DNA of 64,000 bases from Candidatus Saccharimonadales bacterium (GCA_035480715.1 DATIHL010000015.1:72384-136383), one strand, 5' to 3'. Counted from the first letter of the stretch, positions 1 through 64,000 are shown. The notes: a model not told the origin generated them from the letters alone. Program-made: numbers and translations.

Positions 1-320
1 AAAAATCGCTTATCCCTATGTTTCTTGAGCCAAGGCAAATAGCTGACTGCGTAATCGTCGATGCGCAGTTTTTCTTGCTCTTGGAGCTGCATTATGGCAG
101 TTGCCGTAAATGTCTTGGAGTGCGACGCGATGCGGAACAAATGATCCGGGGTCATCTTTTGCTTCTTCTCAAGATCGGCATAGCCATGGGCTTCTAGAAA
201 AATAATCTTGCCATCACGAGCAACGGCAACAACCAGTCCAGGGATGTCGTTCTTCTGCTCGTAAATCAAACGGAGCCATTGGCTTAAATATCCGTACGGC
301 TCCCAGTCTGTCTTAGTCAT
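1..320 (-). CDS. serine hydrolase / beta-lactamase-family protein, N-terminal part only (gene runs off the left edge)
   Basis: Absent from the ORF track because it is truncated. Reverse translation from ATG 320-318 gives MTKTDWEPYGYLSQWLRLIYEQKNDIPGLVVAVARDGKIIFLEAHGYADLEKKQKMTPDHLFRIASHSKTFTATAIMQLQEQEKLRI, with the S-x-x-K motif (SHSK) of class C beta-lactamase/PBP-like hydrolases. Confidence 0.7.
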   Translation of the reverse strand, partial: MTKTDWEPYGYLSQWLRLIYEQKNDIPGLVVAVARDGKIIFLEAHGYADLEKKQKMTPDHLFRIASHSKTFTATAIMQLQEQEKLRIDDYAVSYLPWLKKHRDKRF

Positions 321-355
321 AGATATATTATTTCACAATTTACTAAAATGTAAAT

Positions 356-380
356 TGCTTAACTTGTTAAGTATTCCCTG
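356..380. repeat. P palindrome copy 1 (TGCTTAAC-TT-GTTAAGTA plus TTCCCTG tail)
   Basis: Read directly; one mismatch to the consensus TACTTAAC-NN-GTTAAGTA. Lies 11 nt downstream of the stop of 391..825 and ~36 nt upstream of the ATG at 320 (minus-strand genes). Confidence 0.7.
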
Positions 381-390
381 TGGGTTCGTG

Positions 391-825
391 TTATTCTCCG
401 TGAACCGCTGCCAACCCCTCCAGCTGACTACGAATTTCGTCAACTCGAGCAAATGTCATGAAATGTACATCCGAAAGCTCATACCCGACTGGCATTACTG
501 GAACTTGATCGCCGTCGCCGTATAGCGGCTCGGTAGAATTAAGGTAAATAACGCCTTCCTTTGATAACGCCATGGACTCGACTCCCGCTGGCTCGCAACC
601 GTGCAAATCCCAGCCCTCGACATATTCTATGACCCGTTCTCGTTTACGGAATATACTTCGGCGTACTTCTTTTTCTAAGCCAACAAGGCAATCAGTCGGC
701 ACTCTTCTACCACCTAGCCTCATAGCCAAGTCAGTGGCGTCCAATAAAAGTTCGGTGATTGCCTCGTCATTTTCTAACACATACTCGATGCCGTTCGGCG
801 CTTCGTAATCCCCGCTCGCACTCAT
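391..825 (-). CDS. hypothetical protein (144 aa, acidic, no recognisable motif)
   Basis: ORF track. The ATG at 825 is preceded by AGGAGG 6 nt upstream (taggaggaattttATG). Confidence 0.6.
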   Translation of the reverse strand: MSASGDYEAPNGIEYVLENDEAITELLLDATDLAMRLGGRRVPTDCLVGLEKEVRRSIFRKRERVIEYVEGWDLHGCEPAGVESMALSKEGVIYLNSTEPLYGDGDQVPVMPVGYELSDVHFMTFARVDEIRSQLEGLAAVHGE

Positions 826-835
826 AAAATTCCTC

Positions 836-2131
836 CTAACTCAATCTCTTAGAGATTTCGTTGACTTTAACACGCTCTTGTTGAGTAGTATCCCTACTCC
901 TTAGTGTCAAAGTATCGTCCTCTAGAGAATCAAAGTCAACAGTCAGACACCATGGAGTGCCGATTTCGTCTTGGCGACGGTACCGTTTGCCAATATTGCC
1001 GTTGTCGTCGAACATAACTGCTCCAATTTCATCTTTGAGCATTTTGTAAACTTCTTTGGCTTTGGCGACCAGCTCAGGTTTGTTTTTGAGTAGTGGAAAT
1101 ACGGCGACTTTAACCGGCGCAATTTCTGCCGGCAGTTTTAGGAAAACACGCTTTTCCCCTACCTGCTCGTCTTCCGAATACGCTGAAATAAGTAGTGCCA
1201 GCACTAAGCGCTCTACGCCAAATGAAGGCTCGATAACATGCGGAAGGAACGGTGAGCTACCATCTTTGGGCCGGTACTGTAAATCCTTGCCTGAGGCTTC
1301 TTGGTGATTCTTGAGGTCGTAGTCGCCTCGATAAGCCAGACCGGCTAGCTCGTCAGTTTTAAATGGAAAATCGAACTGAAAATCTATGGTGCGTTTAGAG
1401 TAATGTGCTCGATCCTCCTCTGGAACTTCTAGTTCGTGGATATTATTTTCCGGTAGCCCAACTTTTTTGAAGAAGTCCATCATACTGAGGCGCCATTGCT
1501 CAAATGCTTCCTCCCATTTATCAGATTGAACAAAATACTCGATTTCCATCTGCTCCATTTCGCGCAGACGGAATAAAAAGTCTCGGGGGCTAATTTCGTT
1601 ACGAAAAGCTTTGCCGATTTGCGCCAAGCCAAAAGGCATATCGGGCTGAACGGTATCCAAAATGTTTTTGAAGTTAACAAACATACCTTGTGCAGTTTCC
1701 GGACGCAAGTAGCTAATACTATCTTTATCCTCAGTGGGGCCAGTATTTGTCTTGAACATCATATTAAACTGTTTAGGCTCACCTAGTGTGTCTTCCTTGC
1801 CGCATACAGGACACTTATTCCCATCTATATGATCCTGACGCAAACGTGAATGACAATTACTACACTCAACCATTGGGTCGTTAAAGCCGGTAGCGTGGCC
1901 GCTAGCCTCCCAGACCTTTTTGTTCATTAAAATAGCAGCATCCATCGGATACATATCATCCCGGCTAGTTACAAAGGAGTTCCACCAAAGGTTTTGGATG
2001 TTGTGCTTAAGCGCTATGCCTAGCGGGCCGTAATCATAAACACCAGCCAAACCACCATAAATTTCGGAACTAGGAAAAATAAATCCCCGCCGTTTAGCCA
2101 AGCTAACAATATCTTCCAAAGAAACACCCAT
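836..2131 (-). CDS. glyQS: glycine--tRNA ligase (homodimeric class II type)
   Basis: 431 aa. The N-terminus LAKRRGFIFPSSEIYGGLAGVYDYGPLG and the overall layout are typical of alpha2 GlyRS. Confidence 0.93.
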   Translation of the reverse strand: MGVSLEDIVSLAKRRGFIFPSSEIYGGLAGVYDYGPLGIALKHNIQNLWWNSFVTSRDDMYPMDAAILMNKKVWEASGHATGFNDPMVECSNCHSRLRQDHIDGNKCPVCGKEDTLGEPKQFNMMFKTNTGPTEDKDSISYLRPETAQGMFVNFKNILDTVQPDMPFGLAQIGKAFRNEISPRDFLFRLREMEQMEIEYFVQSDKWEEAFEQWRLSMMDFFKKVGLPENNIHELEVPEEDRAHYSKRTIDFQFDFPFKTDELAGLAYRGDYDLKNHQEASGKDLQYRPKDGSSPFLPHVIEPSFGVERLVLALLISAYSEDEQVGEKRVFLKLPAEIAPVKVAVFPLLKNKPELVAKAKEVYKMLKDEIGAVMFDDNGNIGKRYRRQDEIGTPWCLTVDFDSLEDDTLTLRSRDTTQQERVKVNEISKRLS

Positions 2132-2154
2132 CTTAAGCAGGAATTATAGACGCT

Positions 2155-2817
2155 TTAACGAGTTTCGGCTACTTCTACGCGCGCCGGTTGGCGCAGGATT
2201 TGGATAAATTTATATTGATATTTACCAGAGCGAGCTTTAATTATCTGCTGAGCCACCCATCCTTTATCAAGCATTTGGTCTAAATCGTCACGCTTTACTC
2301 CATCCCAAAATGCAGTCCGCATGCCGGACGGTGCTGCAACTAATACTTTGGCTATGCGACCATCTTCCGCCAAGCCGTTACTCAATTGGCCAGCGCCAGC
2401 TTTAATAAAATTATAAATGGGTTCCAGTTTGCGCGGCGTCCACTGCGATGTTGAGGTAACGGTAACAAGTTCATCCAGGTGATTCTGTTTTATCAGGAGC
2501 GATCTTACAAAATAAATTAGTCCCCTCCCACCAACATCCAGCATATCTTCTATTTGCTGCGTAGATAAATCAGTGACAGTACCATCCTGATAAAAACCGG
2601 CAGCGTATACTAAAACATTAACTTTTGGCAAACCCTTAATAAACCTTTCTATTTTTGTAGGCAAGTCGTTTTGGGTTAGATCAAACTTTCTAAATTCAGC
2701 AAAATTAACCTTTGGGTCGTTTCTGCCCGTGATAATTACTTCATCGCCTTTATTGCTAAACTCCTTAGACAAGGCTAGACCTAAGCCCGAACTGCCACCT
2801 ATAATCAAGACTTTCAT
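2155..2817 (-). CDS. SDR-family oxidoreductase
   Basis: 220 aa. N-terminal Rossmann motif MKVLIIGGSSGLGLALS. Confidence 0.75.
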   Translation of the reverse strand: MKVLIIGGSSGLGLALSKEFSNKGDEVIITGRNDPKVNFAEFRKFDLTQNDLPTKIERFIKGLPKVNVLVYAAGFYQDGTVTDLSTQQIEDMLDVGGRGLIYFVRSLLIKQNHLDELVTVTSTSQWTPRKLEPIYNFIKAGAGQLSNGLAEDGRIAKVLVAAPSGMRTAFWDGVKRDDLDQMLDKGWVAQQIIKARSGKYQYKFIQILRQPARVEVAETR

Positions 2818-2828
2818 ATCAAGAGAAA

Positions 2829-3521
2829 TTATATCCGAACGTAGGTTTTGAGGATAGTATCGATTAGAGCTTGACAGTCATTAATAAGATTTAGAGCGCC
2901 TTCAATCCGTTGAAGGGCTTTGGGAGCATTATTGCCAAAACCCAAGCGCAGGAATTTTATGTGATTGACATTGAATTCACCCTGCTCTTTTGGAGCGAAT
3001 TTCATTTTATCAAAATCGAAGCTGTAAGTTTTGGACTGTGCTAGTTTTTTGCCGGACTCATCACTATGCAAATTAGGTGCGTGACCAGCGAGCTTCAAAA
3101 GTTGCATCCTAAACCATAGCTTAGTAAGCTCGGGTGAAATTTCGGAATCGTCAAGTGCGCCTAGAGCTCGATCTAAGAGATTAAAATAGGCTTCTTCTGG
3201 CTGATCTTCGGTAGCCTTATTTAAAATTTTGAGGAAATCATAGCCCTCGTTTGTGCGGTCGATGCTTTTGACAATGTTTCCGTAATGCCGCATTAGTCGC
3301 GCGGAAATAAGCGTATTAATTTCACCACGTCCAACAATGACGGTTAGATCACTGACGCTGAAAAGTTCAATACTACCAGCCAGTTTGGCCTTGGATTTTC
3401 GCACACCTTTGGCAATAGCCTTAATTTTGCCGTGGTCTTTGGTTAGGAAAGTTAATATCCGATCGGCTTCGCCGTAATCTGTACGGGTGAGTACAATACC
3501 TTGCGTTGCGTATTGCTTCAT
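2829..3521 (-). CDS. recO: DNA repair protein RecO
   Basis: 230 aa. OB-fold N-terminus GIVLTRTDYGEADRILTFLTKDHGKIKAIAKGVRKSK is RecO-like. The start overlaps the upstream gene by 4 nt. Confidence 0.85.
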   Translation of the reverse strand: MKQYATQGIVLTRTDYGEADRILTFLTKDHGKIKAIAKGVRKSKAKLAGSIELFSVSDLTVIVGRGEINTLISARLMRHYGNIVKSIDRTNEGYDFLKILNKATEDQPEEAYFNLLDRALGALDDSEISPELTKLWFRMQLLKLAGHAPNLHSDESGKKLAQSKTYSFDFDKMKFAPKEQGEFNVNHIKFLRLGFGNNAPKALQRIEGALNLINDCQALIDTILKTYVRI

Positions 3522-7409: not shown

Positions 7410-7410
7410 T

Positions 7411-7484
7411 ATGAGAAACCCCTTCGCGGTTTCTCATCGCGCCGGGCAAAAAGTGTGATTTTTGCTCGGGCTGCTCTTCCGGAT
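7411..7484 (+). ncRNA. structured element family X, copy 1 (function unknown)
   Basis: Near-identical flanks to 32177-32241 (CCCCTTCGCGGTTTC.CATCGCGCCGG ... TCGGGCTGCTCTTCCGGAT) around a hairpin with conserved stem and divergent loop. The stem is fully paired only on the plus strand (G.U); the minus strand would have A.C mismatches. Confidence 0.4.
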
Positions 7485-7525
7485 AAATTAGCCATACATC
7501 AATATCATATTACAATTAGTGGAGC

Positions 7526-11911: not shown

Positions 11912-11990
11912 TAGCTATTTTCTAAATATTAAACTAATGCTTTTTATTATACAGGTTGTAGAGTTATTGGGATTATAGGTTATATGAAAA

Positions 11991-12014
11991 TACTTAACTT
12001 GTTAAGTATTCCCT
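11991..12014. repeat. P palindrome copy 2 (TACTTAAC-TT-GTTAAGTA plus TTCCCT tail)
   Basis: Perfect 8+2+8 palindrome read directly, ~80 nt upstream of the ctpA GTG on the minus strand. Confidence 0.8.
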
Positions 12015-12028
12015 ACTTTTGGAAAAGC

Positions 12029-12130
12029 GAGGCTCTTACTTTCCAGCACATGTGACAAAACAGATAGAGTCCGGACTAATTGGACGGGTGATATCCGGTT
12101 TTCGAGTGTGCTGGAAAGTAAGAGACCGAG
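12029..12130. repeat. structured element family Z, copy 1 (perfect 18-bp outer stem)
   Basis: CTCTTACTTTCCAGCACA (12033-12050) pairs perfectly with TGTGCTGGAAAGTAAGAG (12107-12124). The interior shares blocks CAGCACATGTGA.AAAACAGA.AGAG, ATTGGA, GATATC and CTGGA.AGTAAG with 16193-16296. Lies ~12 nt from the stop of 12136..13263. Confidence 0.6.
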
Positions 12131-16192: not shown

Positions 16193-16296
16193 GAGGCTCC
16201 TTGCTTGACAGCACATGTGAAAAAACAGAGAGAGCTTTGACCGATTGGAGAAGCGATATCTTGTTTTTGAACGTACTGGAGAGTAAGGGGCTGAGG
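16193..16296. repeat. structured element family Z, copy 2 (degenerate outer stem)
   Basis: Homologous to 12029-12130, sharing blocks CAGCACATGTGA, AAAACAGA, ATTGGA, GATATC and CTGGAGAGTAAG. Ends 3 nt from the prfB stop (16299-16301). Confidence 0.55.
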
Positions 16297-21311: not shown

Positions 21312-21368
21312 ACCTCCACTAAAAAATTAGCCACTCCTTATTGTACTCCAAAAACTGCTCCCAAAAAA

Positions 21369-21393
21369 TACTTAACTTGTTAAGTATTCCCTG
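21369..21393. repeat. P palindrome copy 3 (TACTTAAC-TT-GTTAAGTA plus TTCCCTG tail)
   Basis: Perfect palindrome 5 nt after the serS stop. On the minus strand it is followed by TTTTTT. Confidence 0.8.
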
Positions 21394-21397
21394 TTTG

Positions 21398-32154: not shown

Positions 32155-32176
32155 CTACGCTTACGCTTATAAGACA

Positions 32177-32241
32177 CCCCTTCGCGGTTTCCCATCGCGC
32201 CGGCAAAATGGAATACATTTTGTCGGGCTGCTCTTCCGGAT
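32177..32241 (+). ncRNA. structured element family X, copy 2
   Basis: Shares 15+11 nt of 5' flank and 19 nt of 3' flank with 7419-7484. The hairpin CCGGCAAAAT-loop-ATTTTGTCGG is one bp shorter on both arms than copy 1 (compensatory indel). Confidence 0.4.
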
Positions 32242-32314
32242 GAAGCAAGAAAATACCTGAGAACAGCCAACTAGCGCTTATGCTTAAAATATGTTGTAAA
32301 AAGCTATTAAATTA

Positions 32315-32348: not shown

Positions 32349-32650
32349 TGACACCAGTTATGCCGAGAGGTATTGCTGACACACATGTGTCGTTTGCATA
32401 AGTCGCAAAAGTTTTTGGTTTTATAGAGAGAAGGCAGTTCTAGAAAACCAGCTCTACTAGGAATCAGGAAGTCTTCAGACGAAGCAAAGCGTTCGTCCTC
32501 ACGCGTACGTGCCCTCGTTGGGGCGAAGGAGATAGGCCGTTCAGCGCCCGGCCGGGCGTTACAAACTCAACGATATCTAAGAGTGAATGGCTGAAAATGC
32601 AATCAACGTAAGACCCCCATCGCTTAGGCAGCGGTGGGCGTTTTATTTTT
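32349..32650 (+). ncRNA. unclassified ~300-nt non-coding RNA candidate
   Basis: Bounded by the promoter above and a strong intrinsic terminator. Contains no credible ORF. Several local hairpins: GACAC-ACAT-GTGTC, GACGAA-8 nt-TTCGTC, CGCCC-GGCC-GGGCG. Confidence 0.45.
32614..32650 (+). terminator. intrinsic terminator
   Basis: CCCATCGC-ttaggca-GCGGTGGG followed by TTTTATTTTT. Confidence 0.7.
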
Positions 32651-32699
32651 AGGTGCAAAGCATCGCCTGAACCTGTCAGCCAGCCAAGCCGACTGTACC

Positions 32700-32800
32700 G
32701 TTCAGGCTTGAAGCTCCGCTACTCCTTCGATGTATCTCAATACACCTCAGTCTGTTGCTCGCTTCTTCCTTGTACTGCAACCAAATGCTTAGCACCTACT
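32700..32800. repeat. structured element family Y, copy A (opposite orientation to copies B and E)
   Basis: Core 32719-32779 is about 83% identical by eye to the reverse complement of 38453-38514 (TACTCCTTCG..GTATCT..ATACACCTCAGTC.GT..GCT..CTTCCT.GTACTGCA). Confidence 0.6.
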
Positions 32801-32903
32801 AGTTCTAATTCTATCCACAAGCAAAACGCCTCTGGGATAGTAATGTTTATATATACGGGAGTGAAATTTATTACTGATGAATTTCATGGCATAATTTAAA
32901 ATC

Positions 32904-38382: not shown

Positions 38383-38433
38383 AAAGCTAGTTTATAGTTT
38401 TTAGTTTTTAGTGGCTAGTACACTAATCCCAGA

Positions 38434-38552
38434 CTAGGCTTTCTCAGCGATGCAGTACGAGGAAGCCGCGAAGCACGGACTGAGGTGTATTCAAGATACT
38501 CCGAAGGAGTACTGTAGTGGCTGACGAAGTAATGCGCGTTGAGAAAGCCTAG
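38434..38552. repeat. structured element family Y, copy B
   Basis: Perfect 13-bp outer stem CTAGGCTTTCTCA (38434-38446) / TGAGAAAGCCTAG (38540-38552). The 3' arm contains the greA stop codon. Inner stem CAGTAC/GTACTG and core GAAGCACGGACTGAG plus a GTAT..ATAC hairpin. Confidence 0.65.
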
Positions 38553-44010: not shown

Positions 44011-44022
44011 AATATCCGAAAT

Positions 44023-44040
44023 TACTTAACAGGTTAAGTA
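44023..44040. repeat. P palindrome copy 5 (TACTTAAC-AG-GTTAAGTA)
   Basis: Perfect 8-bp arms, 1 nt from the tsf stop codon (44042-44044). Confidence 0.8.
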
Positions 44041-44041
44041 T

Positions 44042-44506
44042 TTATTCCACTTCGCCGAGTGCCATACGGGAAAAACGACGAACAACAATGTTTTCACCCA
44101 GTTTGGCGATATGCTCTTTGACGTAGTCAGCAACGCTGATTTCTGGATTTTTGACAAATGGCTGCCCTAGAAGCTCATCAACGTCCTCTGCTTCGGTGGC
44201 GGCAATATGCAGCGTTAAATCTTTAACCAACTCTTTAAATTCGTCGGTTTTGGCCACAAAATCAGTCTCGCAATTAACTTCTATTACTACGCCAATGCGG
44301 CCGTCGTGCGAATAAGTACCGATCAGTCCTGCTCTGGCTTCGCGCTCACCGCGCTTTTCGGCTTTGGTCAAACCCTTTTTGCGCATCTCGGCCAATGCTT
44401 TATCGAAGTCGCCGCTAGCATCCACTAAAGCCTGCTTGGCGTCAGTTATTCCAACACCAGTAAGCTCTCGCAGCCGCCTAATTTCATCTATAGGTATGTC
44501 TGCCAT
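44042..44506 (-). CDS. tsf: elongation factor Ts (very short form)
   Basis: 154 aa. N-terminal UBA-like IRRLRELTGVGITDAKQALVDASGDFDKALAEMRKKG and part of the core domain. Confidence 0.85.
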   Translation of the reverse strand: MADIPIDEIRRLRELTGVGITDAKQALVDASGDFDKALAEMRKKGLTKAEKRGEREARAGLIGTYSHDGRIGVVIEVNCETDFVAKTDEFKELVKDLTLHIAATEAEDVDELLGQPFVKNPEISVADYVKEHIAKLGENIVVRRFSRMALGEVE

Positions 44507-46291: not shown

Positions 46292-47350
46292 ATGGAAGAT
46301 CATGAACAAAATTTACGTATGGAGCTTGAGCAGCTGCAAAAGCAGCTGCAGCACCCTGATGTATTCGGGCGATCAGATTACCCTACTCTGGCGAAACGAC
46401 AGGGAGAGCTTGCTAAAACTCTAGCTTTGTATGATGAAAGAAAGCATCTAAAGGCGCAATTAACTGACGCTAATGATATGGCAAATTCCTCTGATTCGGA
46501 ACTGGCTGAGATGGCCAAGAATGAAGTTGAGGATTTACGACAAAAGCTAAATAAAGCCGACCAGGAGCTGAGCGAAGCACTCACGCCAAAAGATCCGAAC
46601 GACGAGCGTAATGCTATCGTGGAAATACGCGCTGCAGCTGGCGGCGACGAAGCATCACTTTTTGCCGGGGATCTTTACCGGATGTATTCGCGCTTTTGCG
46701 AAAAACACGGCTATAAAACAGAGTTGGACACGGAAAGCCCATCTGAAGCTGGTGGTTTTAAGGAAATCATATTTGAAGTACACGGCGCCGGCGCTTACGG
46801 CCAACTAAAGTTCGAAGCTGGCGTTCACCGCGTGCAGCGCGTGCCAGTAACAGAGAGCAGCGGTCGTATACACACCAGTACTGTAACGGTAGCAGTTTTA
46901 CCAGAGGCCGAAGAAACTGACCTAAAAATCAATCCGGACGAGCTCAGGATAGATGTATTCCGAGCCTCCGGCCATGGCGGCCAGTCTGTTAATACTACTG
47001 ATTCGGCCGTTCGCATCACCCACATACCCACCGGATTGGTTGTTAGTATGCAGGACGAAAAGAGCCAGATCAAAAACCGCGACAAAGCCATGAAGGTACT
47101 CCGGTCTCGCCTGTTGCAAATGAAAGTTGAAGAAGAACAGAAGCAGCTATCAGATGAACGGAGCAAGCTAATTGGCACCGGGGATCGCTCTGAAAAAATC
47201 CGCACCTATAATTTCCCACAAGACCGTATTACCGACCATCGCATAAATTATTCACGCAGTAACCTACCCGGCGCCCTAGCTGGCGACATCGATGACATCG
47301 TCGAAAAACTGCATGAACGCGAACTCGAGTTACTAAAGAGCGGCCAATGA
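46292..47350 (+). CDS. prfA: peptide chain release factor 1
   Basis: 352 aa. P-x-T tripeptide (PVTES), GGQ ([16 protein letters not shown]). Confidence 0.93.
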
Positions 47351-48651: not shown

Positions 48652-49908
48652 TTAAGGCGCGGCGGTCAGCTTGGCATGTAGAGTTATGGTTTTACCATCG
48701 CGGACTACCGTTAGAGTGACTGTGTCGCCGACTTTGAAGTTCGTCAGAGCCGAAGTTAAGCTAGTCTTTTCGTTAATATTTATGTTGTTAATCTTGGTGA
48801 TAATATCCTTTTCCTTCACTCCGGCTTTCTCGGCCGGGCTGCTGGCAATTACAGAAGGTGTGCTATCGGTGTTGGGGGTCACATAAGCCCCGTGATTAAC
48901 CGGTAAATTATACTGATAGGCAATATCCGGAGTCAGTGATACATAACGTACGCCAAGATACGGTTGCTGCAATTTACCGCTACCAAGTACACCGCTGATC
49001 AGACCTTTGACGTCATTTATAGGAATGGCAAAACCAATGTTTTGCGCACCGGAAGCCACAGCCGTATTTATAGCAATCACGTCGCCGTTGATATTAACCA
49101 ATGGGCCGCCCGAGTTACCTTCGTTGATAGCGGCATCGGTCTGGAAAAGGTCTGTCAGGTTTTCGCCGCTTGTGCCATTTTGATCGCCAGCCTGGACGTC
49201 GCGCCCATATCCCGAGATGATACCGCTAGTAACGGTGTTTTGGAATTGACCCAGAGCGTTGCCGATCGCCACTACCCTATCACCTACCTGCGTTTGCGAT
49301 GAATTACCCAGTGTTACCGGAGTTAATTTTTTACTCCCTAAATTATTTATTTTCAGAAAAGCTACATCCAGTGGGCTGCTATCGCTGGTTCGACCGATGA
49401 CGCTGACATTTTTATAAGTTGTGCCGTCTGCCAATGTGACACTGACGCTGGTAGTGCCACTGGGTACTACGTGGCGGTTAGTAACGATAGTGCCATCCGA
49501 GCTAATGATAAAACCTGTGCCGGCAGCTTCCTGGCTTTGCGGGAAGGAATAGCCAAAAATGTCCTGCGAGGTCTGAGTTTGTACTGCATCAATACTAACT
49601 ACGCTAGAACCGACGTTTTTAGCAATTTCTGAAATAAGTTGGCCCTCGCTGGACACGTATTGTTGTTTAGCCTCTGTTGACGACGGGATCGGTTGGCTGT
49701 GATTATAAGTTCTAGCCCCCAGCCAGCCGCCACCAAAACCTATGGCTAAGATGATAAGCACTACAGCCAAAAGTCGCAGCAGATAAGGGCGATTAACGCG
49801 GCTGATATCCGGCGCCTTAAATTTAGGCAGATTGCCAGTCCTGGAAACGCGGGTCGAAAAGCTCGATACCTTAGCCTCTTTTGAGTTTTCTAAATCATCA
49901 GCCGCCAT
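48652..49908 (-). CDS. htrA: HtrA/DegP-family serine protease with PDZ domain
   Basis: TNRHV, D and GNSGGPLVN catalytic triad; C-terminal PDZ. Start set at ATG 49908 (MAADDLENSK); the ORF track uses TTG 49920. Confidence 0.88.
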   Translation of the reverse strand: MAADDLENSKEAKVSSFSTRVSRTGNLPKFKAPDISRVNRPYLLRLLAVVLIILAIGFGGGWLGARTYNHSQPIPSSTEAKQQYVSSEGQLISEIAKNVGSSVVSIDAVQTQTSQDIFGYSFPQSQEAAGTGFIISSDGTIVTNRHVVPSGTTSVSVTLADGTTYKNVSVIGRTSDSSPLDVAFLKINNLGSKKLTPVTLGNSSQTQVGDRVVAIGNALGQFQNTVTSGIISGYGRDVQAGDQNGTSGENLTDLFQTDAAINEGNSGGPLVNINGDVIAINTAVASGAQNIGFAIPINDVKGLISGVLGSGKLQQPYLGVRYVSLTPDIAYQYNLPVNHGAYVTPNTDSTPSVIASSPAEKAGVKEKDIITKINNININEKTSLTSALTNFKVGDTVTLTVVRDGKTITLHAKLTAAP

Positions 49909-49961
49909 GCTTAACCCCAATACTTAACCATTATACTGAAAATTAACTGAATAAATGTGCC

Positions 49962-50142
49962 CTGCTGTCTAACGCTCACGCTTGAGCAAATCGCTAGGCG
50001 CCAGTGAAGCGCAGACTGAGCCGTATATGAAATACGGTGTGGGAGCACTGGAACTGGCAACAACGCGATTTGCCAAGAACGATAGCGGTGCAACCCGCTT
50101 GACTGGTTGGCAGGCTATCGTGACGCGAGCGTTAGACAGTAG
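49962..50142. repeat. structured element family Y, copy E (largest member)
   Basis: 19-position outer stem 49962-49980 / 50124-50142 (1 G.U, 1 mismatch). Its 3' arm contains the stop codon of 50132..50893. Inner stem CCAGTG/CACTGG. Core AAGCGCAGACTGAG plus hairpin CCGTAT-ATGAA-ATACGG, with compensatory changes relative to copy B. Confidence 0.6.
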
Positions 50143-52514: not shown

Positions 52515-52601
52515 CACAATATTGAACCAGTATACCATTAGCAATTAACTACAGGAACAGACGCTGTTCGGGTTCCTGACAGCTAATTGATGATTATTAA
52601 A

Positions 52602-52619
52602 TACTTGACTTGTTAAGTA
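52602..52619. repeat. P palindrome copy 4 (TACTTGAC-TT-GTTAAGTA)
   Basis: One mismatch to the consensus. Lies in the divergent region between the LCP gene and lepB. Confidence 0.7.
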
Positions 52620-52676
52620 ATTTTTCAGAGTCATTTCAGTCTCCATACTTATACTCTTAAGCTATAATGGTAGCTT

Positions 52677-56631: not shown

Positions 56632-59600
56632 CTAATTGCCAGTAACAATCAACTGGTCAAGGGTTACAGTGTTTTGCGAGGCACTAGCGCCCCATGTAGG
56701 ATAGATGTAGAGATTTTTGGCGGTGGTCGATGTAACAGTGGTGCTGGTTGTAGACACAACCGGAAAGCTACCCAAAGAAGTGGTAGAAGCAGCCGTGGTT
56801 TGGTAATTGTAAATACCTTGGCCATTCATTGAAGTGGTAGAGAAACAAATAATTGTAAAATCAAGTGACCATAATTGGTTTGACGCCCCGTTGGCGCCCG
56901 CTATTGCCGGGGTATCAACACCTATTTTAGTATCATTTCCTCTAGTTGTAGCATCGGTGCCGTAGTAAACGCTCATGCCAAGTGTTGGGGTGTTAGTATT
57001 GCTCCAGTGGCCTTTTGCCATAATATGGATGGCTCTTCCGGCCTGGCAATAGTTGGCAGGTATGGGAGCGGCGCTATTAAAGGCTGCGCAGGCAGTGGTG
57101 CAGCTGGCTATAGTATTGCCGGCTGGGATCGATGTATTAGAGTACAACAAGCCATTACATGTAAGCCAAGAGCCGGCCTGGCCGCACATAAAGTTGTGAT
57201 CACTCGCACTATAGAACATGGCGCCATTGATTACCGTGGACGGCGCATTTGTAGCCGTTCCGGCGTTAAAGGTCGAATTACTATCGCTATCAAGCACCAA
57301 AAGCTCGCCAGCCGTCTCGCCAGTCGAACCACTACCGACAATCACGTTAGCATTAGATGTATCAACCGTCAGAATAGCAGTGCCTGAAGAATTCTGTACC
57401 TGCAAACCAGTGGTGGTATCAGCTTGGTTCTTAAAGGTCACCGGGTTGGTAACGGTACCGTTAAATTGCAGCTTGCCCTCATAGTAGGAGTTAACAGTCG
57501 AACCAGACTCCAGCAACACGCCATCCACATAGAAGGCCGGAGTCCTGGCAGTGCTATCGCTTTGGCGGATAAATATGTAACCACCGGTGGTAACCGTACT
57601 GGTCGTGAAGGTACATGAATATCTGGCCCAAGTAGTAGTAGCCGAGGAGTTGTTCAATGTACAGGTTGATTCGCCGGCAAAGGTGTCATTATCAGCCCTA
57701 CCGGCTTGGATCGTAACTGTTCCGCTACCAGAGCGCGCCCAGAAACTTAAGGCGTAATTCGTAGAGCTGCTTAATAAGGTTGCAGTATCGTATTTAGCCC
57801 CAGCGTTGGTGGTAGCAGAGGTATTAATAGCTAAGGATTTATTGCCCACTATTTGGGCGGTACTACTACTGGATACCGAGCCGCTACCTGTATTGATTGC
57901 CCAGTTAGTAGTATCTGTTTCAAAGCTGGCGTTACCAACCAGGTTGTTATTGGTAGTATCGGCTAGGAATAAGTTGTTGTTGCCAGATGTGTTTTGTATT
58001 TGGAAGCCGGTGGTCGAGTTGCTGGAGTTCTTAAACAATGCCGAACCATTGCTTTGAGAGAAGGTGGCGATGGTACTGCCGTTGGTTTTCAAATTCAAAT
58101 CATAGGCGTCATTAGTGCCAAGGTCGGCCGTTGCGCCAAAGCTGTTGCCATCATCAACAAAGGCCGATAGAGTAGCATCTCCGGCACTTAATACGCGGTT
58201 GGCCTGCAAGAAACTACCGGCCTGCACAGTAGTGTTACCGACAGTGGCAGAGGCTTGAGCGAACTGAAATGTTACAGTTTGAGCAGTTGAGCCGTTGACT
58301 ATTATGCCCATTAGCTCGTACTCGTCCGAGAGATTGTTTGCAGCCTGGTTGTTTGGGCTTTGGTTAGCGCTACAGGCAATATTACTTTCGGTTTTGGCAT
58401 TTTCGAAGTCACCATATCCCCACGTACAAGATGTTGTTGACTGCGGCACATCAAAGTGCCACTTCCAACCGGCAGTGCGTGCAGCACTGACGAGGCTAAG
58501 TACAAAGCGGAAGTTCCAGGTCTCGTTGGCGCCAATTGAGAACTTGAGAGCCGTATCGCTGACTAGGGTAGTTGAGTTGTTAACACTTTGGTCCGAGGAT
58601 TTCACCTGGTTGACCACCGGGTTTACACTTAAGTACTGGGTGGTCATGGACTTCCAGGTTGAACCGTTGTAGCCTTCGAAATCGGTACCGGTCCAGCGGA
58701 TAGTACCAGCGTTAGTATTAGTGGTAGTACCAATATTTATAGCGCCATTTACCTGTAAGGTTTCATTGGGCGTTGATGAAGTGCCAACCCCGAGTTTACC
58801 GTTAACCTGAGTGTAACCGGCAATCGACGAACCTATATTAACTCTAGTGGTCGAGCCTGAGGTGGCACTGGTACCGATATTGATGGTCTGCGTGTTACCA
58901 TTACCCGCTGAAGCGCCAATAGCAATGGTATTAGTGGCAGTGGAATTTCCTAAAGTTATGCCCCCCGTGTTATTGGATGTACCAATGGTATAGGTGGCTG
59001 AGGCAGCACCCTGGACCGTAAAGGATGTTGTGTTAGTAGTACCACCGATAGTAACTCCGGTCGCCGTAGAAGTACCGACGCTCAAAGCGCCGGAAACCGA
59101 ATCAAACAAGGCGCTTGTAAAGCTGGTATTAGCCTGTCCGCTGCCAGAAATTCGGAAGTCGGCTGTTTGGTCAGATGTGTTCTGGTTTTCTATCGATGCG
59201 CCACCGGCACCGGCAAACTGCCAAGAAGCCCCGCCGTTAGTGTTGGACCAAACTAGCGTGCCGGTGCTGCCCGGAGGAATTCTGATGCCGCTAATTGTGA
59301 AATAATTACCTGTAGCTGCAATATTTGCTATGTAAATCGTACGCCCATAGGTTGTGCTGGCTGTTGGCGTTGGGATTGTATAGGCTCTACCCGATGCTGA
59401 AGGAGCAATACTAAAGCTGCTGTAGATATTGACAGTGGAGGCAGCTGAGCCTATGGAACCAGCAGATAAATCTCCTAGGGCTAGGGTGGTGTTAACGGTA
59501 GCACCATTGTTAGTTACAGTCCCAAACCCAGCCGCATTACCTAGTAAGATTGACAGACCGGCCGCACCTTGCAAGGTAATCGTCGATGTATTGGTGGTGC

Positions 59601-62600
59601 CTCCAATTGTCACACCGGTGGCTGTTGTAGTGCCGACGTTCAGTCCACCGGTTATGGAATCGATCAACGGCGTGGTGAAGCTAGTGTTCGCCCGGCCAGT
59701 GCCGGAAATTCTAAAGTCAGCTGTTTGGTCGGCCGTATTCTGGTTTTCTATTGATGCACCACCCGCGCCAGCAAATTGCCACGAGTCACCGCCGTTAGTA
59801 TTTGACCAGATTAATGTACCGGTACTGCCCGGAGGAATTCTGATACCAGCAATCGTAAAGTAATTACCCGCTGCAGCTATGTTTGCTATATAAATCGTGC
59901 GGCCGTACGATGTGCTCGCTGTAGGTGTGGGTATCGTATAGGCTCTAGCTGATGCCGTTGGAGCGATACTAAAGCTTGTATAAATATCTACAGTAGAAGC
60001 AGCTGAGCCGATTGAACCTGCGGCTAAATCTCCCAGAGCCAGGGTACTATTAAGTGTAGCGCCGTTATTAGTCAGCACGCCCGAGCCAGCGGCATTACCC
60101 AGAGTAGTATTCGCGTTTCTGACTGTAAACGTACCAGTGGTAGCACCCATAGAGATAGATGTGGCTGCTTGCAGCAATGTAACAGTTGTGGCAGTAGAAT
60201 TGAACAGCCCTAACGTCGATTGGTTAGTAGCGACTGTGGCGGCATTAAGATTAATATTACCGCTGCCAGACTGGATGGTGGTGGCTGAGGTACCGCTCGT
60301 CGAACCAAGTACAGTCGAATGGTCGGTGCTGTTATTACCAAATCCACAGGTACCGGTACCACACTGGATGGATACAGCACTGGTAGTGCCAGTAGCGCCG
60401 ATAGTGATGGTACCGCCGGAGCCTTGGGTTATGCTAATGGCACTGGCGCCGGTGCCACCCTGGATGGTGGTTGCGCTGGTGCCTAGTAGATTACCGATTA
60501 CAATGGTATCAGTCGAAGAAGCTGTGGCATTATTGCCAATATTAATAGTTTGGGCTATCGCATTGGCAGTATTACCTACTTGAACAGTGTTAGCCGCATT
60601 AGCCGTAGCGATGTTGATGGTACCGGATGTAGCGGATTGGATAGAGACAGCGCCAGAAGAATTGCCGCCTTGCACGGTGACAGTAGAGGCCGCCGCGTTG
60701 TTAGAGCCGATGGTTATAACAGAGGTATTAGTGCTAGTAGCACCAGCACCTATGGCGATGCTATGAGATGTCGAGGAATTGCCAATAGCGATAGAATTGG
60801 CGCCTGTGCCGGCATCTACAGTTACTGCATTACCAGCATTACCGTTAGAACCTAGCGTTACTGTTTGGGTCGAGTTAGCGCTGGTATCGGCAATATGTAT
60901 AGTTGTATCTTGGGCTGTCGAGCCAACAGATCCAATATTGATCGTTTTACTGGCTACGGCATTAGTTCCCAAATTAATTGTTCCCGAAGCAGCCGTTTGC
61001 AGTGCTAGTGTTCCAAAGGCCTGAATGGTAGTGTTACCGCTGGTTGCACCCGTAAAGGCACCGATGGTCACATTAGTAATGCCAGCGGCGGTGAGATTAC
61101 CGATATTAATAGCTTGAGTATTGCCGGTATTTGTAGAGCTCGTGCCAATTTGAACAGTATTAGCTACGGCATTACTTCCAACCCCAATAACACCACCGGA
61201 AGCTACTTGTAGGCCAAGGGTCGTGTTGCTGCCATTAACACCAGCCTGGAGGGTAAGCGTGGAAGTAGAAGCTGTCGAGCCAACAGTTGCAGTTTGGGCA
61301 GCATTGCCTGTAGCAAAGTTGGCTACTCGAGCCTGTGCACCTGTGCCGATATCAATCTGCCCAGTACCCGAAGAGATGGTAACCGTAGGGTTAGAAGTGC
61401 TATTGCCGATTTGGATAGCTTTGGCGTTGGTATTGCCAATATTAACTGTTGGCGTACCAGAAGTAGTTGTACCAGTGTCAATGGTAACATCTCCACCTAC
61501 CCCCGTGCTGCTAGCGTTACCAGAAGTAATTGAGATCGCACCTGATGTTCCTGATGTAACTGCCGCAGTTTGCAAACTTATACCGCCGGTTCCACCTTGC
61601 AAACTTAAAGAGCCGGCAGAATCACTGGTCTTAACCGTAAGATTACCTGAATCGGTCTGCCAGGTAGATGTACCGTGAGCCGTAACATTGAGCGTTTGGC
61701 TTGCTGCCGCACTTATGGAGTTTGTAGAAGCTGCCGTAAATGTTAACGCTGAAGATGTTAGCACGGTATTTCCGCCAATCTGATAAGACCCAGCTGTGGT
61801 GTTGAAATTGCCCGACCCTGTAACGGTCGTACCGCCGGAAATGCTGCCCACTAAAACTAAGTTGCCACTGGCATCAACGGCGAATTTTGAAGTTGGTGAA
61901 GCTCCAGCCTGCAGATCAATCAAATTCCCGGTTGGTGCCGCATTAGTATTTGAAGCAAATATTAAGGCATTGCCCGAACTTGGATTGCCAGATGCTGTGA
62001 CTTTGAGAGTATTACCAGTATTAGTACCGTTACTAAGGCTTAAAACAGTACCAGTTGAGGCACTGGAAGAGTTAGTGAAGCTATATAAAGTACCGGCGCC
62101 TGCAGCGGCTGAAGACGTATCTGTGGCATTCTTGGCCAAGTATGAGCCTGAGGCCTGGTAGCCGGTACAGACTGAACCGGTTGAGCACAATGTGCCGTTT
62201 TCGGCTGGTAGGTTTAGGGTGTATGCAGTACTGCTTGGAGTCAGGGGTACAAGGCTGATTGAACCTGTTTGGCCAGAGAAGTTGAACTTTAGATCACCGG
62301 TCACGCCAGATGCACCACTGTTGCCTAGCACAGCTATACCACCTGACGTATCAACAGATAGGATGTTCTTGGCACTGGTGTTTTGGACCTGCAAAGTGGT
62401 AGTGCCGTTACTAGCGGCCTTTAGGGTGGTGTCACCAAAGACCTTGGCCAGTTTGTCATTGCCATTGACGCCAAAGACTTCAGCATTACCACTAGATATA
62501 ACCTGGAAGGAGTCTTCACCGGTAACATCTGAACCATTTTTTACTACTACTCCGTGGGTGTTGTTGCCTTGCAGGAATATATTGCTGGTGGCTAAGATAA

Positions 62601-64000
62601 CGCCATTGTTGTCTAGGGACAAGACTGCTGTGCCGCCGGAGGCAGCAAAAGTAAAACCGGCATTACCAGTCCCGTCGCCGATTGAGACAGTATTACCTGA
62701 GGTGTCAACGTTGAGTAAATAATTTCCCCCAGAATTCTGCACTTGGAAAGCAGTTGTCGTATCGGCCGTATTTTTAAACAAACCAGCCCCATTAACAGTC
62801 AGATTGCCCGAACTATCGGTTGTGGGTGCGCTGCTAGCATCACCAGCTAGGCCAGTATCATCCAGAGTCAGACCTCTTACTGTGCCGATTAAACCGGTAG
62901 TACTGGGTGTACCCCCAGCAGTAATACGGTAAACTTTGTAAGACACCGCACCCGTTACGACACTCCAAGTCAGATGATTGTAAGTCGTAGAATTAAGAGT
63001 TGAGCCATCGCTGGCAGAAATAGATGTAGTGCCTGAGGCAGCCGTCTCACCGCCTGAAGCCGAGACAGCTGTAATCTTATATGACCAGTTGGTGGAGGTC
63101 GTACAGCCGGAAGCCGAAGTTACACATGTAATCGTTGGAGCACTAGGCGTAGATAATGCATTAATTGTTGTACCGCCTGATAGGCCACCAGCTAGGCTAA
63201 TTGCTCCTTGATAATACGAAGACCCAGTTACACTCAAATTACCGTTGGCTTGGAGACTTTGGCCGACTGATAGGCCGCCTTGAATATTGAAGTCGCCAGC
63301 CACTTGGCCATTAGAGTCTATTTGAAGTGTGCCAACCTCTGCGCCACCAGCTTCTAGTTGCTGCGTGTAGGCACCTCCCATGTCATAAGTTACAAGGGCA
63401 CTAGTGCTGTAGCTAGTTACATAAGCATAGCGGCCGTTGACCCAAACGTATTGGGGGTTGGATAAGCCAGCAGAAACCGTACCTATCGAAACCAGGTTAT
63501 AAGGGTTATATACATCAACAACATTAAGTGTTCCGCCCGAATTGCTAGCCACATAGGCATACCTGCCTTGTAAATACACCCCCTCGGCATTGCCAATACC
63601 TCCTATAGAACCTATTTGCGAGGGGCTAGCGGGATTACTGACATCAAAGCTTACCAAAGAGTTGCCTCCCCAGTTAGATACATAAGCGTAACGGCCCTGG
63701 ACATAGACACCGTAAGAATTATTTAGCCCAGTAGATATGTTGCTTACCTCTGTTGGGTTAGCGGGATTTGATACGTCAATAATCGTTAATGAACTACCGC
63801 CGTTGGCTATATAGGCATAACGGCCCTGGACGTATATATCCTGAGGTCCATTTAAACTACCGCTTATAGTACTAACCATGGTTGGGCTGGCGGGATTAGA
63901 TACGTCAAATGTAACCATGGTATTGGCTGAAACATCGACTACGTAAGCATAGCGGCCTTGGACATACACATCATACGGACGGAATAGGCCAGTAGATATA
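56632..64000 (-). CDS. giant cell-surface protein, 5'-truncated by the window (>2,445 aa): LVIVD-type beta-propeller repeats, FN3-like module, long Thr/Ser/Gly/Asn/Ala repeat region, CBM4/9-like domain, Cys-containing C-terminal domain
   Basis: The frame stays open to position 64000 (upstream of the track's M: ...YDVYVQGRYAYVV). The (Y/V)VQGRYAYV motif repeats at ~42 aa period over 63370-64000. The CBM-like segment runs NLVGNASFETDTTNW ... FYVDGVLLESG (about 57500-57950). Almost no charged residues across most of the length. Confidence 0.85.
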   Translation of the reverse strand, partial: ISTGLFRPYDVYVQGRYAYVVDVSANTMVTFDVSNPASPTMVSTISGSLNGPQDIYVQGRYAYIANGGSSLTIIDVSNPANPTEVSNISTGLNNSYGVYVQGRYAYVSNWGGNSLVSFDVSNPASPSQIGSIGGIGNAEGVYLQGRYAYVASNSGGTLNVVDVYNPYNLVSIGTVSAGLSNPQYVWVNGRYAYVTSYSTSALVTYDMGGAYTQQLEAGGAEVGTLQIDSNGQVAGDFNIQGGLSVGQSLQANGNLSVTGSSYYQGAISLAGGLSGGTTINALSTPSAPTITCVTSASGCTTSTNWSYKITAVSASGGETAASGTTSISASDGSTLNSTTYNHLTWSVVTGAVSYKVYRITAGGTPSTTGLIGTVRGLTLDDTGLAGDASSAPTTDSSGNLTVNGAGLFKNTADTTTAFQVQNSGGNYLLNVDTSGNTVSIGDGTGNAGFTFAASGGTAVLSLDNNGVILATSNIFLQGNNTHGVVVKNGSDVTGEDSFQVISSGNAEVFGVNGNDKLAKVFGDTTLKAASNGTTTLQVQNTSAKNILSVDTSGGIAVLGNSGASGVTGDLKFNFSGQTGSISLVPLTPSSTAYTLNLPAENGTLCSTGSVCTGYQASGSYLAKNATDTSSAAAGAGTLYSFTNSSSASTGTVLSLSNGTNTGNTLKVTASGNPSSGNALIFASNTNAAPTGNLIDLQAGASPTSKFAVDASGNLVLVGSISGGTTVTGSGNFNTTAGSYQIGGNTVLTSSALTFTAASTNSISAAASQTLNVTAHGTSTWQTDSGNLTVKTSDSAGSLSLQGGTGGISLQTAAVTSGTSGAISITSGNASSTGVGGDVTIDTGTTTSGTPTVNIGNTNAKAIQIGNSTSNPTVTISSGTGQIDIGTGAQARVANFATGNAAQTATVGSTASTSTLTLQAGVNGSNTTLGLQVASGGVIGVGSNAVANTVQIGTSSTNTGNTQAINIGNLTAAGITNVTIGAFTGATSGNTTIQAFGTLALQTAASGTINLGTNAVASKTINIGSVGSTAQDTTIHIADTSANSTQTVTLGSNGNAGNAVTVDAGTGANSIAIGNSSTSHSIAIGAGATSTNTSVITIGSNNAAASTVTVQGGNSSGAVSIQSATSGTINIATANAANTVQVGNTANAIAQTINIGNNATASSTDTIVIGNLLGTSATTIQGGTGASAISITQGSGGTITIGATGTTSAVSIQCGTGTCGFGNNSTDHSTVLGSTSGTSATTIQSGSGNINLNAATVATNQSTLGLFNSTATTVTLLQAATSISMGATTGTFTVRNANTTLGNAAGSGVLTNNGATLNSTLALGDLAAGSIGSAASTVDIYTSFSIAPTASARAYTIPTPTASTSYGRTIYIANIAAAGNYFTIAGIRIPPGSTGTLIWSNTNGGDSWQFAGAGGASIENQNTADQTADFRISGTGRANTSFTTPLIDSITGGLNVGTTTATGVTIGGTTNTSTITLQGAAGLSILLGNAAGFGTVTNNGATVNTTLALGDLSAGSIGSAASTVNIYSSFSIAPSASGRAYTIPTPTASTTYGRTIYIANIAATGNYFTISGIRIPPGSTGTLVWSNTNGGASWQFAGAGGASIENQNTSDQTADFRISGSGQANTSFTSALFDSVSGALSVGTSTATGVTIGGTTNTTSFTVQGAASATYTIGTSNNTGGITLGNSTATNTIAIGASAGNGNTQTINIGTSATSGSTTRVNIGSSIAGYTQVNGKLGVGTSSTPNETLQVNGAINIGTTTNTNAGTIRWTGTDFEGYNGSTWKSMTTQYLSVNPVVNQVKSSDQSVNNSTTLVSDTALKFSIGANETWNFRFVLSLVSAARTAGWKWHFDVPQSTTSCTWGYGDFENAKTESNIACSANQSPNNQAANNLSDEYELMGIIVNGSTAQTVTFQFAQASATVGNTTVQAGSFLQANRVLSAGDATLSAFVDDGNSFGATADLGTNDAYDLNLKTNGSTIATFSQSNGSALFKNSSNSTTGFQIQNTSGNNNLFLADTTNNNLVGNASFETDTTNWAINTGSGSVSSSSTAQIVGNKSLAINTSATTNAGAKYDTATLLSSSTNYALSFWARSGSGTVTIQAGRADNDTFAGESTCTLNNSSATTTWARYSCTFTTSTVTTGGYIFIRQSDSTARTPAFYVDGVLLESGSTVNSYYEGKLQFNGTVTNPVTFKNQADTTTGLQVQNSSGTAILTVDTSNANVIVGSGSTGETAGELLVLDSDSNSTFNAGTATNAPSTVINGAMFYSASDHNFMCGQAGSWLTCNGLLYSNTSIPAGNTIASCTTACAAFNSAAPIPANYCQAGRAIHIMAKGHWSNTNTPTLGMSVYYGTDATTRGNDTKIGVDTPAIAGANGASNQLWSLDFTIICFSTTSMNGQGIYNYQTTAASTTSLGSFPVVSTTSTTVTSTTAKNLYIYPTWGASASQNTVTLDQLIVTGN
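58987..60102 (-). repeat. in-frame tandem duplication (2 x 558 nt / 186 aa) inside the giant gene
   Basis: Unit starts: LGNAAGSGVLTNNGATLNSTLALGDLAAGSIGSAASTVDIY at 60102 and LGNAAGFGTVTNNGATVNTTLALGDLSAGSIGSAASTVNIY at 59544. The units are collinear and highly similar throughout. Confidence 0.85.

Follow-up and report, generated by a model that had tools for sequence, protein, structure and literature searches.

A large palindromic element family at gene boundaries in Saccharimonadales and other Patescibacteria

Three structured copies in the window

The window, that is, the whole 64,000-nucleotide stretch of Candidatus Saccharimonadales DNA analysed here, contains three copies of a structured element, designated A, B and E (Table 1). 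Copy B is situated in the greA-lysS spacer and copy E between a 253-aa ORF and an htrA-like gene, each being flanked by a stop codon on one side and, on the other, by a conserved TATAAT-like box that belongs to the next gene. A preliminary description of this DNA had proposed that the three are related structured elements, and all of them indeed match the pattern GACTGAGNNGTATN{3,7}ATACNNNGNNGGAG. This pattern, in which 20 bases are specified, occurs in the window at 32722-32752 (-), 38478-38509 (+) and 50014-50045 (+), and 100 shuffles yielded 0 matches. A covariance model, R1, built from an alignment of 112 copies, retrieved A, B and E from the 64-kb window and nothing else.

Table 1. Coordinates of the elements, their parts and adjacent signals in the window.
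Feature	Position	Strand	Remarks
Copy B	38434..38552	+	type 1, single-arm hairpin, 119 nt, intact; R1 95.8 bits
B, P1 5' arm CTAGGCTTTCTCAGCG	38434..38449	+	outer ~9-10 nt are an inverted copy of the host C-TAG-GCTTT of empty sites
B, conserved arm 1	38450..38536	+	G.A core strands 38477-38483 and 38503-38509; tip hairpin 38484-38502
B, P1 3' arm	38537..38552	+	holds the complement of the greA stop codon, 38549-38551
Copy E	49962..50142	+	type 2, two arms closed by P1, 181 nt, intact; R1 96.5 bits
E, P1 5' arm	49962..49980	+	outer part CTGCTGTCTAA is an inverted copy of the host last codons and stop
E, conserved arm 1	49981..50079	+	core 50013-50045
E, arm 2	50080..50120	+	outer stem CGATAGC/GCTATCG, loops GGTG/GCAGG, inner stem; 45-sequence arm-2 alignment
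E, P1 3' arm	50124..50142	+	complement of GCT ACT GTC TAA of the 253-aa ORF (..ATV, stop 50132-50134)
Copy A	32650..32798	-	decayed type 2, core 32722-32752; R1 62.3 bits, many non-canonical pairs
Terminator-like hairpin and T-run of preceding + strand unit	32616..32649	+	
TATAAA box, 8 nt upstream of lysS ATG	38391..38396	-	separates B from lysS
TATAAT box of htrA-like gene (ATG at 49908)	49930..49935	-	context CAGTATAAT

The outer stem of B (38434-38449/38537-38552) consists of 13 Watson-Crick pairs, the perfect 13 bp originally reported, followed by one G.T and 2 further pairs, and its 3' arm contains the greA stop codon as described (CTA on the + strand, 38549-38551). The outer stem of E (49962-49980/50124-50142) shows the one G.U (here G.T) and one mismatch noted earlier, and its 3' arm likewise holds the stop codon of the upstream ORF (TTA on the + strand, 50132-50134); the last codons of the 253-aa ORF, besides its stop, also lie inside this arm. 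All 30 of the 30 R1 model pairs are canonical in E. The minimum free energy (MFE) of B is -59.8 kcal/mol (z -7.2) on the + strand and -41.4 kcal/mol (z -3.5) on the - strand, and that of E is -95.9 kcal/mol (z -6.8) on the + strand, with about -95 on both strands.

Copy A, previously placed at 32700-32800, actually occupies 32650-32798 on the - strand. The copy has a deletion of the 3' strand in the basal stem of arm 1 and keeps arm 2 and P1; its MFE is -58.8 on the - strand vs -31.8 on the + strand. It adjoins the terminator-like hairpin of the preceding + strand unit (32616-32649, T-run included), with which it is contiguous. The ORF-free stretch that ends at this hairpin, formerly called an ncRNA, has no Rfam match. 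It starts with a copy (32168-32244) of an ~80-nt two-hairpin sequence that occurs twice in the window, the other copy being at 7410-7487; the halves are 88% and 77% identical.

Other repeats are also present in the window. The palindromic sequence AAATACTTAACTTGTTAAGTATT has five intergenic copies (352-381, 11987-12016, 21365-21394, 44019-44048 and 52598-52623) and may function as an operator or in connection with a promoter. Another structured repeat, 96 nt long (12035-12130 and 16200-16295; copies 74% identical), with terminal inverted arms CTTACTTTCCAGCACA...TGTGCTGGAAAGTAAG, lies between - strand genes and is unrelated to the A/B/E family. Finally, a 2445-aa ORF (56632-63969, -) contains internal repeats of ~130-560 nt, and the GC skew around it is of opposite sign to that of the rest of the window.

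Distribution, fold and strand asymmetry of the family

An exact-pattern scan of one-genome-per-species contigs identified 112 stretches, against an estimated chance expectation of ~5. Nearly all of the pattern-bearing contigs are labelled as Saccharibacteria/Saccharimonadales or Patescibacteria MAGs, some of them as Parcubacteria, Kaiserbacteria, Paceibacteria or Patescibacteria, and the core is common to lineages as deeply separated as Saccharibacteria and Parcubacteria, Kaiserbacteria or Paceibacteria. A few matches stand under unrelated labels (Gammaproteobacteria, Binatia, Babeliales, Deltaproteobacteria and Actinomycetes), and we suspect that these contigs are mis-binned. A covariance-model search, as envisaged in the preliminary description, was made as well: R1 gave 118 matches in the first 100 loci, ~20 of them beyond the exact pattern and with up to 3 per 8 kb. 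A tandem triplet was observed within 400 nt on the - strand of locus L095 (2221-2326, 2343-2440 and 2516-2621), with scores that fall from 63.6 through 44.7 to 33 bits. A phage origin was ruled out by the 0 pattern matches in viral contigs.

No Rfam family that could account for A, B or E was found. The Rfam 15 covariance models gave nothing at gathering score across the whole window, and at E<=10 the sole match between 32000 and 50400 was an unrelated isrK at 46330. The literature searched on CPR/Saccharibacteria RNAs and on palindromic repeats of Patescibacteria contained no description of the family. A, B and E are members of a large, previously unannotated palindromic family of Saccharimonadales and other Patescibacteria.

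Each copy comprises a copy-specific outer stem, P1 (13-18 bp), a TTGG/CCAA helix, arm 1 and an optional arm 2. P1 closes the whole fold into either a long hairpin of ~120 nt or a Y-shape of ~170 nt, and the sizes are accordingly bimodal, with one class at 117-130 nt, to which B belongs, and another at 160-181 nt, which includes E. Arm 2 (~45 nt) has covarying stems of its own in an alignment of 45 sequences. As the copies detected solely by the model reveal, the core of arm 1 reads 5'-R-GA-NN-GA-[hairpin]-GA-NN-GA-G-3', where the GA dinucleotides are constant and the NN/NN 2-bp helix covaries (CU/AG, GU/AC, AC/GU, AU/AU, GC/GC and AG/CU). A third GA/GNA loop is located lower in arm 1, making a total of three tandem G.A modules.

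Covariation on the larger alignment is strong. Among the 112 sequences, 91.8% of pair cells are paired, vs 29-44% after sliding the partners by 1-3 columns; sliding also lowers the covariation score from 0.629 to 0.07-0.11, and 22 of the 30 pairs changed on both sides. Two details of the preliminary description were revised. The inner 6-bp stem proposed there (CAGTAC/GTACTG vs CCAGTG/CACTGG) pairs non-homologous positions of B and E and is no family helix, the true covarying helices being located elsewhere; and the block GAAGCRCRGACTGAG, taken for single-stranded, in fact forms 2-bp helices alternating with tandem G.A loops. The change of closing pairs at the tip hairpin, on the other hand, is real. 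Resemblances to a hammerhead core (CUGA...GAA), group II intron domain V (GAGCCGUAU) and K-turns were rejected, because divergent copies keep only the GA dinucleotides and the defining positions are missing. Similarly, an SD/anti-SD role of GAAGGAG/CUCCUUC was discarded because AAGGAG is not conserved, being replaced by GAACAAG, GAGTAAG, GAATGAG or GAGCGAG in model-only copies.

The two strands of the element are not equivalent. The strand with the purine loops and the G.U pairs, hereafter the motif strand, gives the lower of the two MFE values in 111 of 112 copies (means -37.8 vs -29.2 kcal/mol), and in 107 of 112 when DNA parameters are used. By a tally from the alignment table, G.U pairs number ~257 vs 63 A.C pairs, and two positions are mostly wobble pairs. 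Mostly, the motif strand serves as template for the neighbouring gene. The reverse strand has one or more frames open across the element in 65 of 84 copies, vs 24 of 84 on the motif strand and 20 of 84 in shuffles. It was therefore ruled out that antisense copies are driven to gene ends by stop codons of the reverse strand. This strand is poor in stop codons and, therefore, spurious ORFs pass through the element; such ORFs, e.g. 5655-6026 in L005, 2939-3463 in L056 and 4990-6249 in L073, cluster as false 'protein families'. An apparent association with PNPase or LeuRS was likewise dismissed as an artefact of element-crossing ORF translations and synteny.

Gene boundaries, RNA leaders and empty sites

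A stop codon lies -8 to +7 nt from the outer end of P1 in 35 of 44 cases, and 62 copies have a converging ORF (at least 80 codons) whose end lies at a fixed distance from the core. There are two groups of such distances, corresponding to the two size classes. Of the 44 abutting genes, 27 end in TAG, vs a background of 29%. The abutting genes are diverse housekeeping ones, including greA (three times), khpA, rpoD, secY, gyrA/B, aaRS and RNase J. The common polarity relative to the preceding transcription unit, first noticed for A, B and E, is a general property: the motif is antisense to both of its flanking ORFs in 45 cases and sense to both in 13, with 21 mixed cases. GC skew and gene direction identify the window as one replichore, within which A is inverted along with a small island of + strand genes; an orientation set by replication was thus ruled out. 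Orientation tracks local gene direction, not the replichore.

Copies are also found outside protein-gene 3' ends. In L003 and L045 a copy lies in the tmRNA leader, directly upstream of the mature 5' end, and in L045 a TTGACA-18-TATACT promoter precedes element and tmRNA; in L007 and L057 a copy is placed directly upstream of 16S. All of these leader copies are sense-oriented. Furthermore, the family-4 UDG gene carries in-frame sense copies in four genomes, the UDG of L076 being devoid of the element and that of L105 retaining a remnant, and the IleRS-like gene of L038 and L065 carries antisense in-frame copies. One of these copies, a second insertion of 35 aa in the L065 gene, is missing from L038. 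Elements persist at orthologous sites (three times at greA, four at UDG and two at the IleRS-like gene) with stems that have changed and are still paired, which suggests constraint at the level of the locus. As a separate observation on aminoacyl-tRNA synthetases, L079 encodes a 1130-aa LeuRS (105-3494, +) with a NUDIX domain between its catalytic and anticodon-binding parts.

Close relatives provide empty sites for both intact copies. The greA-lysS spacer measures 166 nt with B and 20-41 nt, with no model match, in relatives whose GreA is 73-84% identical; the spacer holding E measures 223 nt, compared with 19-120 nt and no model match in relatives whose 253-aa protein is 78-82% identical. 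Elements are therefore gained and lost at given sites. The lysS box is conserved as TATAAT in the element-free relatives, and so is the CAGTATAAT context of the htrA-like box. The option that the element is a cis-regulatory leader of lysS or htrA was consequently abandoned: it is missing in relatives, and it lies upstream of the conserved TATAAT-like box, which stands between the element and the ATG. Nor does the element correspond to a riboswitch, T-box or other structured 5' leader of lysS or htrA, and there was no Rfam match.

The spacers show further regularities of their own. The PEBP gene has a TATAAT-like box (32890-32895, +) 8 nt upstream of its ATG, as for lysS; the box lies 5-7 nt before the ATG in the relatives L118, L120 and L125, and 21 nt before it in the htrA-like gene of the window. 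These distances suggest that this Saccharimonadales lineage has leaderless or near-leaderless mRNAs. Where spacers are shortest, the -35 region would overlap the preceding gene. Right after the same stops, element-free relatives carry other, unrelated inverted or AT-rich repeats (L123 1663-1782, L119 1660-1747 and L121 1669-1764), for example the inverted repeat CAATTAACAGTGAGCAG...CTGTTAATTGTTCACTG of L123, and the site behind these stops seems to be generally permissive for hairpins.

The preliminary description had also offered a terminator or stabiliser at mRNA 3' ends. A classical terminator does not fit, since there is no U-tract in either direction: T residues 3' of P1 average 2.5 of 9, and A residues 5' of P1 average 3.35 of 9 vs 2.63 in controls. 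A terminator scan at B and E found none. On the mRNA strand, the reverse-complement hairpin that begins on the stop codon might still be a broader host cis-element. It would then stabilise 3' ends, terminate transcription with the help of a factor or, as RNase III-type punctuation, separate transcription units, much like REP/ERIC hairpins or the tRNAs of mitochondrial transcripts. Such a role could explain why the element is placed exactly between a stop and the following gene's TATAAT box, why it borders tmRNA and 16S directly at their mature 5' ends, why its orientation bias follows transcription and why it is retained at orthologous sites; the reverse strand, too, still forms a long hairpin, as the - strand values of B illustrate. 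We nevertheless consider this reading unlikely, given that in 111 of 112 copies it is the opposite strand, bearing the G.U pairs and the tandem G.A loops, that folds better, that no U-tract is present, that close relatives lack the element at the same sites and that copies inside ORFs occur in both orientations.

Alternatively, the motif strand itself might be transcribed, giving small RNAs that diverge from the AT-rich promoter of the next gene or belong to the tmRNA/16S leaders, and that act in trans, for instance by binding a protein, or block antisense transcription. G.U pairs and purine-loop motifs confined to one strand are typical of RNA, the core is deeply conserved, and paralogues within a genome are divergent while each keeps the fold. 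Moreover, -10-like hexamers are enriched 10-40 nt upstream of P1 in the direction of the motif (TATAGT at 38393-38398 for B and TATACT at 49932-49937 for E), and the strong promoter of L045 reads through element and tmRNA in the motif sense. However, the -10-like enrichment is family-wide equal on both strands and comes without a -35 box, and the scan found neither a motif-direction promoter nor a terminator at any of the three window copies, so that a sigma-70 promoter or intrinsic terminator of their own was dismissed for A, B and E. In addition, P1 overlaps coding sequence, presence and absence are polymorphic at housekeeping loci, and the antisense copies in the IleRS-like ORF would escape motif-sense transcription. 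Taken together, we regard motif-sense RNAs as quite unlikely.

Partly host-derived outer stem and proposed origin as a palindromic insertion element

In the P1 of E, the codons GCT ACT GTC TAA pair with the far-side sequence TTAGACAGCAG. The ..ATV* ending that these codons encode is conserved in 20 of the 20 homologues read, and TTAGACAGCAG is present in none of the empty sites. Host flanks are paired likewise at the UDG codons TWV(I/V)LP and at the QHL codons of the IleRS-like gene and, to a lesser degree, at C-TAG-GCTTT in B. The outer part of P1 is therefore host flank paired with its own inverted copy. Such an inverted duplication might be made by the insertion itself; alternatively, hairpin-templated (quasi-palindrome) correction could extend the stem and keep it paired, or selection for pairing could be responsible. 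These options bear on the earlier argument that covariation implies selection on RNA or single-stranded DNA. The covariation is strong, as stated above; as proof of RNA selection it is weaker than had been assumed, because the outer stem consists in part of host sequence and its inverted copy, to which hairpin-templated DNA processes can also give rise. Covariation in P1 is therefore not clean evidence. The asymmetric loops and wobble pairs are beyond the reach of templated correction and therefore still argue for a constraint on the fold of one strand.

Among the three options of the preliminary description, that of a small mobile structured repeat targeting gene ends fits best, because the element is multi-copy, lies against stop codons, and is absent at the sites of B and E in close relatives. 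We accordingly propose, with about an even chance of being right, that the family is a non-autonomous palindromic insertion element of the RPE/REP kind, because it shows gain and loss, in-frame insertions in essential genes and copies in RNA leaders. Its members settle where they are tolerated, namely behind stops, before the 5' ends of tmRNA and 16S, and in frame within genes, and they behave like elements whose folded shape is preserved more than their sequence. According to this proposal, the element would spread or persist as a folded single strand, its G.A-rich rod may be recognised by a trans-acting factor that is not encoded adjacent to it, and P1 would owe its formation and continued pairing to hairpin-templated copying, to selection or to both. 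Selection against the strongly folding strand in protein-coding mRNAs would then account for the bias in orientation. If the greA and 253-aa-ORF transcripts extend past their stops, they would carry the weaker, reverse-complement hairpin, which would begin on the stop codon. Any effect on the host would presumably be of the REP/ERIC type, through a 3'-end hairpin on the upstream mRNA.

The rickettsial palindromic elements (RPEs), known as in-frame insertions in Rickettsia genes (PMC10969869), are a close parallel. As with RPEs, we are dealing with hairpin repeats of ~100-150 bp in a reduced genome, both intergenic and in frame within unrelated housekeeping genes (PMC10969869); a peptide loop is added to the product, here in UDG and in the IleRS-like gene, and no transposase is adjacent. 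The host phylum is different, and the likeness is one of such features. Unlike RPEs, the present elements have a copy-specific outer stem and a conserved asymmetric G.A rod, lie mostly behind stops in one preferred orientation, and share a core across very deep lineages.

REP/REPIN and ERIC/Correia repeats are also multi-copy extragenic palindromes, often at gene 3' ends and co-transcribed (PMC10969869). Correia and ERIC are co-transcribed as hairpins; RNase III cuts the former, and the latter changes mRNA levels when located at 3' ends (PMC10969869). Their effects depend on orientation, as one strand folds better, which is a further point of likeness. The elements described here differ in having no common terminal inverted repeat, no target duplication and no REP-like tetranucleotide, in that no cognate RAYT/IS was seen within the 8-kb loci, and in the strong divergence of copies within a genome. 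REPINs are doublets of short inverted REP units that have a conserved 5' tetranucleotide and a cognate RAYT gene. The two hairpin halves of the present elements can be told apart by their conserved asymmetric G.A loops and their G.U pairs and hence do not represent a single unit in inverted duplicate.

As in MITEs, the elements are non-coding, non-autonomous and multi-copy, with insertion polymorphism. A classical MITE was nonetheless rejected, on account of unrelated P1 arms within a genome, the lack of a boundary consensus and the lack of a target duplication. The boundaries of 84 copies yielded neither a consensus nor a terminal inverted repeat common to the copies. P1 identity is 0.47 within a genome vs 0.48 between genomes, and arm identity 0.755 vs 0.69. 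With regard to target duplications, TA occurs near both boundaries in 21 of 84 copies vs 16 in the control, and the longest direct repeat across the boundaries is distributed as for mismatched flanks. A TA/CTAG target duplication was likewise rejected; some copies read CTAG...CTAG, with no excess over controls. No transposase-like family is present among the ten commonest ORF clusters of the 8-kb loci.

Several observations weigh on the insertion-element reading. The divergence within genomes looks more like that of old, individually maintained elements than like that of an active repeat. Together with orthologous persistence and deep conservation of the core, it counts against a purely selfish interpretation. 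Against the insertion-element reading also stands that neither the excess of TAG stops nor the orientation rule is mechanistically explained by it, as do the lack of common terminal inverted repeats, of target duplications and of a recurrent transposase-like neighbour, and the viral contigs devoid of the pattern. The closing stem that is unique to each copy and partly host-derived, the conserved G.A rod and the rule of orientation and position at gene boundaries are unusual features of this family.

Integron attC sites have conserved ends and a variable centre, keep structure over sequence, and fold on the strand antisense to the ORF. The present elements resemble them in keeping structure while sequence varies, in the antisense relation of the folded strand to the upstream ORF, in starting at or on the stop codon and, for E, in the presence of GTCTAAC...GTTAGAC in the outer stem. 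The arrangement of conserved and variable parts is the reverse, however, 84 copies give no R''/R' consensus, and the neighbours are core housekeeping genes (greA, secY, gyrA/B, rpoD and aaRS). When the attC R'' (RYYYAAC) and R' (GTTRRRY) cores were sought, only E matched, through its host-derived TAA context. An attC identity was ruled out by the missing R''/R' cores and the housekeeping neighbours. A wider possibility is a DNA-level single-strand site for a recombinase, an HUH enzyme, a topoisomerase or the replication machinery, which would operate independently of the host transcript. It would account for a fold kept in all transcript contexts (3' ends, ORFs read both ways and RNA leaders) and for the attC-like conservation of structure over sequence, with a fold antisense to the ORF and overlapping its stop; the missing TIR/TSD resembles IS200/IS605-type single-strand transposition, and the motif strand is the more stable one with DNA parameters too (107 of 112). 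The ends, however, have no conserved core and no family-wide RYYYAAC/GTTRRRY, the neighbours are housekeeping genes and not cassettes, orientation follows transcription and not the replichore, and no integrase or Y1 transposase gene recurs among the commonest ORF clusters of the 8-kb loci. We therefore judge such a site to be very improbable.

In mitochondrial transcripts, tRNAs serve as punctuation. By analogy, the structured elements of this family adjoin stops and stable-RNA 5' ends in a compact genome; the differences are that most copies here are antisense to the transcript and that they are dispensable in relatives.

The elements might also be no passengers at all, representing instead structured nucleic acids of a new class that have a function in Patescibacteria, a proposition that we put forward as doubtful. 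On one version, a motif-sense RNA, arising from the neighbouring promoter through divergent transcription or forming a leader, would use its periodic tandem-G.A rod to bind a conserved cellular partner; on another, the elements would serve genome-wide as punctuation or insulation at the gene boundaries of these streamlined genomes. A linked idea is that insertion, or later templated copying, duplicates the host flank in inverted form, so that the closing stem would come from the last codons of the host gene.

Patescibacteria (CPR) constitute a large share of bacterial diversity and have very small genomes, and the literature searched offered no description of their non-coding repeats or RNAs. 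The family reported here appears abundant, with 3 copies per 64 kb in this window and up to 3 per 8 kb elsewhere, and its structural support is as strong as that of many curated RNA families, even though it is absent from Rfam. It provides a natural case of in-frame palindrome insertion outside Rickettsia, and a clear example of compensatory stem changes involving host coding sequence, in which covariation of a DNA palindrome need not equal RNA selection. Furthermore, the family is useful as an annotation marker for spurious ORFs and for apparent insertions in UDG and aaRS proteins. If a cellular partner of the element exists, it would be a new piece of CPR molecular biology.
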